Assembly: GCF_028641065.1 (NCBI RefSeq)
Contig: NW_026575289.1
Coordinates: forward strand, 1 to 56,160
Direction of reading: 5' to 3'
From: Leucoraja erinacea
Lineage: Eukaryota
DNA: 56,160 nt
This document shows positions 54,070-54,483 of this stretch, in pieces. Position 1 is the stretch's first letter; every line of letters starts with the position of its first letter. The translations under genes were made by a program, and so were the position numbers. The notes beneath the pieces are model-generated. The model was given only the letters and a program-made list of their open reading frames with translations. It was not told where the DNA came from and ran no database searches.

Positions 54070-54483
54070 ATGGCCCGGACCAAGCAGACAGCGCGCAAAT
54101 CGACCGGAGGGAAAGCTCCTCGTAAGCAGCTGGCGACCAAAGCAGCGCGGAAGAAGAGCGCTCCAGCCACGGGCGGAGTGAAGAAGCCTCATCGCTACAG
54201 GCCCGGCACCGTGGCTCTGAGGGAGATCCGGCGCTACCAGAAATCCACCGAGTTGCTCATCCGCAAACTGCCCTTCCAGCGCCTGGTGCGGGAGATCGCT
54301 CAGGACTTCAAGACAGATCTGCGCTTCCAGAGCTCGGCCGTCATGGCCCTGCAGGAGGCCAGCGAGGCTTACCTGGTGGGGCTCTTTGAGGACACCAACC
54401 TGTGCGCAATCCACGCCAAGCGAGTCACCATCATGCCCAAAGACATCCAGCTGGCCCGCCGCATCCGCGGGGAGCGCGCCTAA
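54070..54483 (+). CDS. H3: Histone H3 with an extra lysine at K27 (137 aa)
   Basis: [19 protein letters not shown] at 54151-54156; otherwise identical to H3.2. Confidence 0.93.

Follow-up and report, generated by a model that had tools for sequence, protein, structure and literature searches.

A histone H3.2 gene with a doubled K27 codon in a decaying histone unit of a skate

The codon for lysine 27 is doubled in one histone H3 gene of a skate, so that the tail reads ARKKS in place of ARKS. This raises the question of whether the gene is a living variant with altered K27 chemistry, a passing mutation in a copy on its way to death, or an error of the assembly. The window analysed here is the whole contig of 56,160 nt, a large inverted duplication with a unique centre of 7 kb (~31.8-39.0 kb). 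Each arm holds an H3 gene and its neighbours, and the two copies can be compared with each other.

The ARKKS gene and its mirror copy

The coding sequence at 54070-54483 of the forward strand translates, in the assembly, into a complete H3 of 137 amino acids (PF00125, 164.8 bits) containing AARKKSAP. R26 is encoded at 54148-54150, the tandem AAG AAG at 54151-54156 (equivalently, a GAA at 54150) and S28 at 54157-54159. The doubled K27 falls within the disordered H3 tail, at a site with a 5-nt GAAGA seed. The mirror H3.2 (11600-12010, reverse strand) lacks the additional codon and, by sequence comparison with the ARKKS copy, encodes the canonical protein with ARKS; the two coding sequences are separated by one 3-nt gap, three synonymous substitutions and nothing else. 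The ARKKS protein carries the diagnostic residues A31, S87, V89, M90, S96 and C110, in keeping with H3.2, and its chaperone-determining residues are of the H3.2 type.

The gene has the H3 histone fold, an intronless coding sequence and a 3' stem-loop of the RF00032 family followed by an HDE, and it has one lysine more than the canonical 135-residue H3.2 with ARKS at 25-28. This makes it a mutant allele within the replication-dependent H3.2 class, not a gene for the canonical protein. Known genes of this class are alike in protein (bar one residue), in these structural features and in the H1-H4-H3-H2A-H2B arrangement of their unit; the ARKKS gene differs from them in the extra lysine at 27, in TACAAAA at the TATA position and in its dead or decaying neighbours.

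The stem-loop, GGCTCT-TTTA-AGAGCC at 54510-54525 (+), lies in an RF00032 match over 54505-54551 that scores 35.9 bits against a gathering threshold of 34. The HDE-like element, the purine-rich AAAGAGCTGT at 54542-54551 (+), begins 16 nt 3' of the stem and presumably pairs with U7. An earlier note on this DNA had described an in-frame AAG duplication in an otherwise perfect H3.2, an intact stem-loop and HDE, and a canonical mirror copy. The translation, the diagnostic residues, the Rfam match and the alignment of the arms agree with it on each of these points, as far as the assembly goes.

Upstream of the gene, one reverse CCAAT box (ATTGG) was found at 53926-53930 (+), where the mirror arm reads ATGGG. 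In both arms a CCATT (53958-53962, +) follows 32 nt after this box and is possibly a decayed second CCAAT, on our assumption that tandem CCAAT boxes are spaced by 32 nt. The TATA position, 31 nt before a putative CATTC start, is occupied by TACAAAA in both arms (53994-54000, +), unlike the H4 gene of the same unit, which has TATAAA. From their sequence, CCATT and TACAAAA look like decayed CCAAT and TATA boxes. The ARKKS arm retains the first CCAAT box, a strong start context, the stem-loop and the HDE. A yeast study (PMC3514670) lists TAcAAAAA among the changes used to abolish a TATA box and describes a fall in the burst size of HXT2, whereas in other promoters burst size was unaffected by TATA loss.

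Folded as a naked RNA, the 56 nt at 54500-54555 are predicted to pair the 5' arm of the stem-loop with the HDE (best fold, -19.1 kcal/mol, z -3.9). The mirror H3 is identical over the stem-loop and HDE region and has the same predicted fold. Such pairing would mask both signals unless SLBP binds first, and is probably a frequent feature of genes whose HDE is of the AAAGAG type.

A histone unit in decay

The outermost pair of arms is an H1-H4-H3-H2A-H2B unit of a rajid skate. The outer arm that carries ARKKS, 51229-56160, is 97.8% identical to its mirror at 9926-14862, with 81 substitutions and 11 indels between them. In the ARKKS arm, H1 has an open frame (51598-52239, +), which is frameshifted in the mirror copy. 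Its closest relatives are skate proteins, with 85-93% identity for three of the best matches, from Amblyraja radiata and then Rhinoraja and Leucoraja. When the 13 amino-acid differences between the two H1 copies were polarised against two skate relatives (P0198 and P0199), seven proved to be derived in the ARKKS arm and five in the mirror, with one ambiguous.

H4 is a pseudogene (52972-53273, +) whose frame is lost right after the ATG in both arms; the ATG frame stops after 22 codons. Compared with H4 read from retrieved loci, seven missense changes are found in both arms (G13D, G14R, T54I, G56V, V60D, E63V and G101V), to which the mirror arm adds four and the ARKKS arm a 2-nt deletion near the end. 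The promoter and 5' half of H2A have been replaced in both arms by a CR1-type reverse-transcriptase fragment (54914-55092, +; E 1e-30 when the RT ORF of the window is the tblastn query). What is left of H2A is a 3' remnant from about residue 57 without a start codon (55093-55319, +). Only the 3' end of H2B (56022-56160, -) lies before the end of the contig. The last pair of its stem is broken in both arms (AGAGCA), and this stem-loop has no Rfam match at the gathering score. The ARKKS H3 frame is open, with no frameshift, stop or truncation, unlike the adjoining H4 and H2A.

Between arms, H1, H4, H2A and H2B together have accumulated 19 nonsynonymous and 6 synonymous differences (omega 1.04), against 0 and 3 in H3 (Fisher p=0.026). 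At the non-coding rate, H3 should have gained 4.9 missense changes over the two arms, but it has none (P=0.007), and H4 carries every one of the 11 missense changes counted in the two genes (P about 9e-5). This lack of missense in H3 suggests a gene that was live until recently. For the ARKKS arm taken alone, 2.5 protein-changing events would be expected and one is seen (P=0.30), which is compatible with neutrality. Since the signal of constraint covers both arms jointly, it argues but faintly for a copy that is still transcribed.

H3 is nevertheless the sole gene of the unit with such a signal, and its expression is therefore possible. The clean frame may be due either to purifying selection after the neighbours had died or to refreshing by gene conversion, which could explain it equally well. 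If purifying selection was at work, the TACAAAA promoter would function to some degree. Altogether, the sequence puts transcription of the ARKKS copy at about an even chance or slightly better. Of the core-histone genes in this dying unit it is the last to be intact, and its allele is apparently a unique and private product of slippage.

Predicted effect on K27 chemistry

If expressed, ARKKS H3 would assemble normally, as the histone fold is unchanged. In a review (PMC9255955), the preference of PRC2 is given as [ACVP]-[AVL]-[RK]-K-[FYH]-[AVCTS], with R26 read directly and A25 through steric exclusion, and EED is said to favour A-R-Kme3-S. EZH2 bound to nucleosomes holds A29/P30 and V35 too, G33/G34 being a possible hinge; DNA contacts set the register, and R26-K37 are read (bioRxiv 10.1101/2020.04.22.054684 and PMC11832421). 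Native K27 matches the flanking positions of the PRC2 motif at four of five, as does the first ARKKS lysine; the second matches three and fails at the sterically restricted -2. The first lysine stands 10 residues from the K36 equivalent (9 in the native tail) and the second stands 9.

The earlier note held that neither lysine keeps its native context. This is correct in that neither has the full A-R-K-S-A-P, but each retains half of it, the first with as many PRC2 matches as native K27. PRC2 would therefore most likely methylate the first lysine (A-A-R-K) at lower efficiency, the register of this lysine with A29/P30 and K36 being shifted by one residue. Methylation of K27 would be reduced, and its reading by EED and chromodomains weakened, on ARKKS tails only, with no poisoning of PRC2 of the K27M kind; any effect is likely to be mild and in cis. 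The change uncouples two features that place K27 in PRC2, namely the upstream contacts of A25-R26 and the distance to A29/P30 and K36, and the question for the enzyme is which of them wins.

The P+2 proline of S28 serves 14-3-3 (PMC4103482). The ARKKS serine keeps this proline, and the arginine shifts from -2 to -3. According to kinase consensus motifs, arginine at -3 should be unfavourable for Aurora B but need not be so for MSK.

A dominant effect, which the earlier note had carried over from K27 mutants, is not expected. A review (PMC6562757) confines global loss of H3K27me3, at 3-17% of H3, to K27M and, in a smaller degree, K27I; no other substitution tested produces it, and insertions stand outside that statement. 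With K27M, the methionine sits in the lysine channel of EZH2 and binding is more than 10-fold tighter (PMC9255955). ARKKS has neither Met nor Ile in place of K27 after A-R. The K27M and K27I oncohistones, with their mimic EZHIP, resemble the present case as a residue-27 change in one H3 gene among many, but they act in trans through Met (or Ile) in the EZH2 channel, whereas ARKKS still presents a lysine after A-A-R. Arabidopsis H3.10 and H3.15 also have altered residues at or around K27, which would lower K27 methylation; they are conserved and tissue-specific and have multiple changes, traits not seen in the ARKKS gene.

The same note had presented the gene as a Polycomb-altered variant, if expressed, and equally as a possible early step of pseudogenisation. 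The latter caveat was well placed. The note did not mention the decaying neighbours, TACAAAA at the TATA position or the single recorded copy of the change. As for the former, the constraint on H3 leaves room for expression, but a selected variant is very improbable, as discussed in the following section. If the allele turned out to be fixed and expressed, and to be conserved among skates, specialists would take note of a vertebrate H3 variant whose K27-S28 switch is rewired.

Origin of the extra codon

The 11 indels between the arms include ten gains or losses of tandem units, and six are at least 2 nt long. At the rate of the arms (11 in the 4,932-nt arm pair), 0.92 indels would be expected in a coding sequence of 411 nt, 0.25 of them in frame, and the K27 site is one of 20 period-3 runs of at least 5 nt in the H3 coding sequence. 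The insertion belongs to this background class of indels; its position alone is striking, and scans of many windows select such cases post hoc. The lack of ARKKS in a mirror that is 97.8% identical makes the change very young.

With modest confidence, the extra lysine can be attributed to an in-frame 3-nt tandem duplication by replication slippage, later than the duplication of the unit, in a redundant and probably weakly transcribed H3.2 copy that is still weakly live and has negligible effect. The histone unit would have been duplicated first, and slippage at the GAAGA seed would then have doubled the K27 codon in one arm. ARKKS would be tolerated, probably through the redundancy of the copy and its weak transcription, to which the TACAAAA promoter points. 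The number of skate-type H2B copies with tail indels, described below, argues for many histone paralogues elsewhere in the lineage, so the gene would contribute a small share of total H3. Birth-and-death turnover of multigene histone families yields odd single copies, and the ARKKS gene is best read as one more of them, caught in a unit that is dying gene by gene, with H3 last.

Proteins of the KAARKKSAP type, through which the earlier note had proposed to trace the change across taxa, turned up nowhere else in the sequences searched. One contig, the window, has the exact protein, against at least 1,000 contigs for the canonical protein. Among 436 proteins compared, 270 are H3-like, and ARKKS occurs in one of them, which is the query itself. 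The protein searches cover cluster representatives and did not return the query, and are thus a weak test of absence. Those with the H3 tail region gave no ARKKS in the best 120 of 7,958 matches (among 8,000 scored candidates) or in the best 120 of 850, the top identity being 98%. A degenerate ARKKS pattern, which finds intronless matches, hit 0 stretches in metagenome contigs. The canonical pattern, used as control, matched 121 loci in 5 parts out of 64 (~1,900 estimated overall); none of the 121 encodes ARKKS, and among the 15 best shown no match reaches into the H3 promoter. Orthologues kept across species under purifying selection, as an established variant would have, were not seen among the cluster representatives searched. 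A word search listed 24 sequencing runs, none with as many as half of its 132 sampled words (the best share was 0.42), and they were taken as no evidence. In the literature, covered thinly for subscription journals, no H3 K27 insertion appeared by title or abstract opening in a search for ARKKS in histone H3, and no description of a K27/K28 duplication in H3 was found. Among the papers listed on histone clusters of sharks, on variants of H3 and on birth-and-death evolution, none dealt with the skate H3 locus.

Other odd H3 copies are known from these searches, which drew on an H3 protein cluster of 220 members (40 read, 15 listed). P0004 has lost one K36/37 lysine and is identical in newt, moth and coral among the matches listed; P0009, from a beetle, has also lost one K36/37 lysine; P0010 lacks one residue near A31-T32; and P0014, from hagfish, has a KMK insertion. 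Like the ARKKS gene, they are one-codon indels in otherwise perfect tails, annotated as H3 or 'H3-like'; ARKKS differs as a gain at K27, and no second K27 duplication is present among the 270 H3-like proteins. The lysine loss of P0004 is likely to be recurrent slippage or an assembly error at a 7-nt GAAGAAG-type run.

A serious, if unlikely, alternative to slippage in a weakly live copy is that H3 is already silent. The whole unit would then be a dead orphan, its H3 frame clean through recent conversion from active H3 genes, and ARKKS would be neutral. TACAAAA and CCATT in both arms fit such a history, as do the HXT2 result in yeast, the neutral evolution of the remaining genes and the P=0.30 of the ARKKS arm alone. 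Conversion, however, would have had to clean both arms of missense and yet leave them unlike at three synonymous sites, and the signals retained in the ARKKS arm, from the first CCAAT box to the HDE, together with the yeast promoters that tolerated TATA loss, also speak against silence. An error of assembly or polishing, in a multi-copy region where the 56-kb contig ends ~2 kb away, appears distinctly improbable. It would account for a protein recorded on one contig and none other, and the insertion has two of the three synonymous differences within a distance of 12 nt, but this clustering is not significant (P=0.09). Transitions are scarcer in the outer arms (36/81) than in the inner ones (55/82; p=0.005), yet transversions also abound among the H4 lesions that the two arms share (4/7), so the spectrum is not peculiar to one arm. 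Moreover, the arms differ mostly by substitutions (81 against 11 indels), and six of the 11 indels exceed 1 nt. Consensus errors are typically of the homopolymer type, which the arm indels do not resemble.

Import of the ARKKS stretch by a short conversion tract from an ARKKS-bearing paralogue, which would imply a small family in the genome, is given very little weight. Three arm differences do fall together within 54138-54156, but with the same P=0.09, and the exact protein is found on one contig and once there. Equally improbable is an expressed and selected variant that retunes Polycomb marking, e.g., by setting the methylated lysine apart from the phospho-switch at S28. Freedom from missense decay in H3 alone, 3' processing signals that pass Rfam, and a PRC2 register over R26-K37 combined with the A-R-Kme3-S preference of EED, which leads one to expect a biochemically visible change, are in its favour. 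Against it stand the youth of the allele, its single copy, its membership of a background class of indels and the lack of a second case in the sequences searched; neither a further amino-acid change nor a divergent promoter marks it as a specialised variant. In a bolder and scarcely probable version, H3, the only gene still at work in a dying unit, would have become a fixed, expressed skate variant. PRC2 would then methylate the first lysine and the spacer lysine would insulate the mark from S28 phosphorylation, or the adjacent lysines would bear methyl and acetyl groups together, giving a K27 signal without its usual switch-off.

Several observations concern the rest of the contig. Divergence between arms (9926-31821 against 39001-56160) grows from the centre outwards, through 0.45%, 0.67% and 0.93% to 1.64%, which could be due to arm-to-arm conversion or to staged duplications. 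One arm alone has the block at 14863-19560. As the source of the mirror, a read-level fold-back chimera was rejected, because the arms differ by 0.45-1.64%, mostly by substitutions, around the 7-kb unique centre. An in-frame ATC indel of H1, considered as a second duplication in the ARKKS arm, was rejected, as the relatives show a loss in the mirror arm.

The mirror-arm H2B (9690-10064, +) is open over 124 aa; its possible TATA position reads TCTAAAA, a repeat lies directly upstream and its stem-loop is broken. The inner H2B belongs to a skate-type cluster of 36 members, 7 of the 15 listed being on one 15.6-Mb contig. Its paralogues P0183-P0196 show tandem gain and loss of units of 6-10 residues in the N-terminal tail, e.g., PKTKDAVGSL twice in P0186. 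A degenerate H2B-like sequence is present at 22937-23176 (+) and 47619-47858 (-), with 46% identity over 81 aa (E 1e-9) and 67% over 110 nt. Directly preceded by a copy of the H1-H4 spacer, it lies within the 5' part of a LINE ORF but in a different frame. Either the LINE inserted where an old H2B remnant lay, or it captured histone sequence. The LINE ORF itself (22765-26145, +) encodes endonuclease and RT in 1,126 open codons; its counterpart (44789-48030, -) is in pieces. In the inner pair of H2A genes, the copy at 30380-30877 (+) is frameshifted just after PKKT and gives a 165-aa product running through its own stem-loop, while that at 40057-40437 (-) encodes a normal protein of 126 aa.
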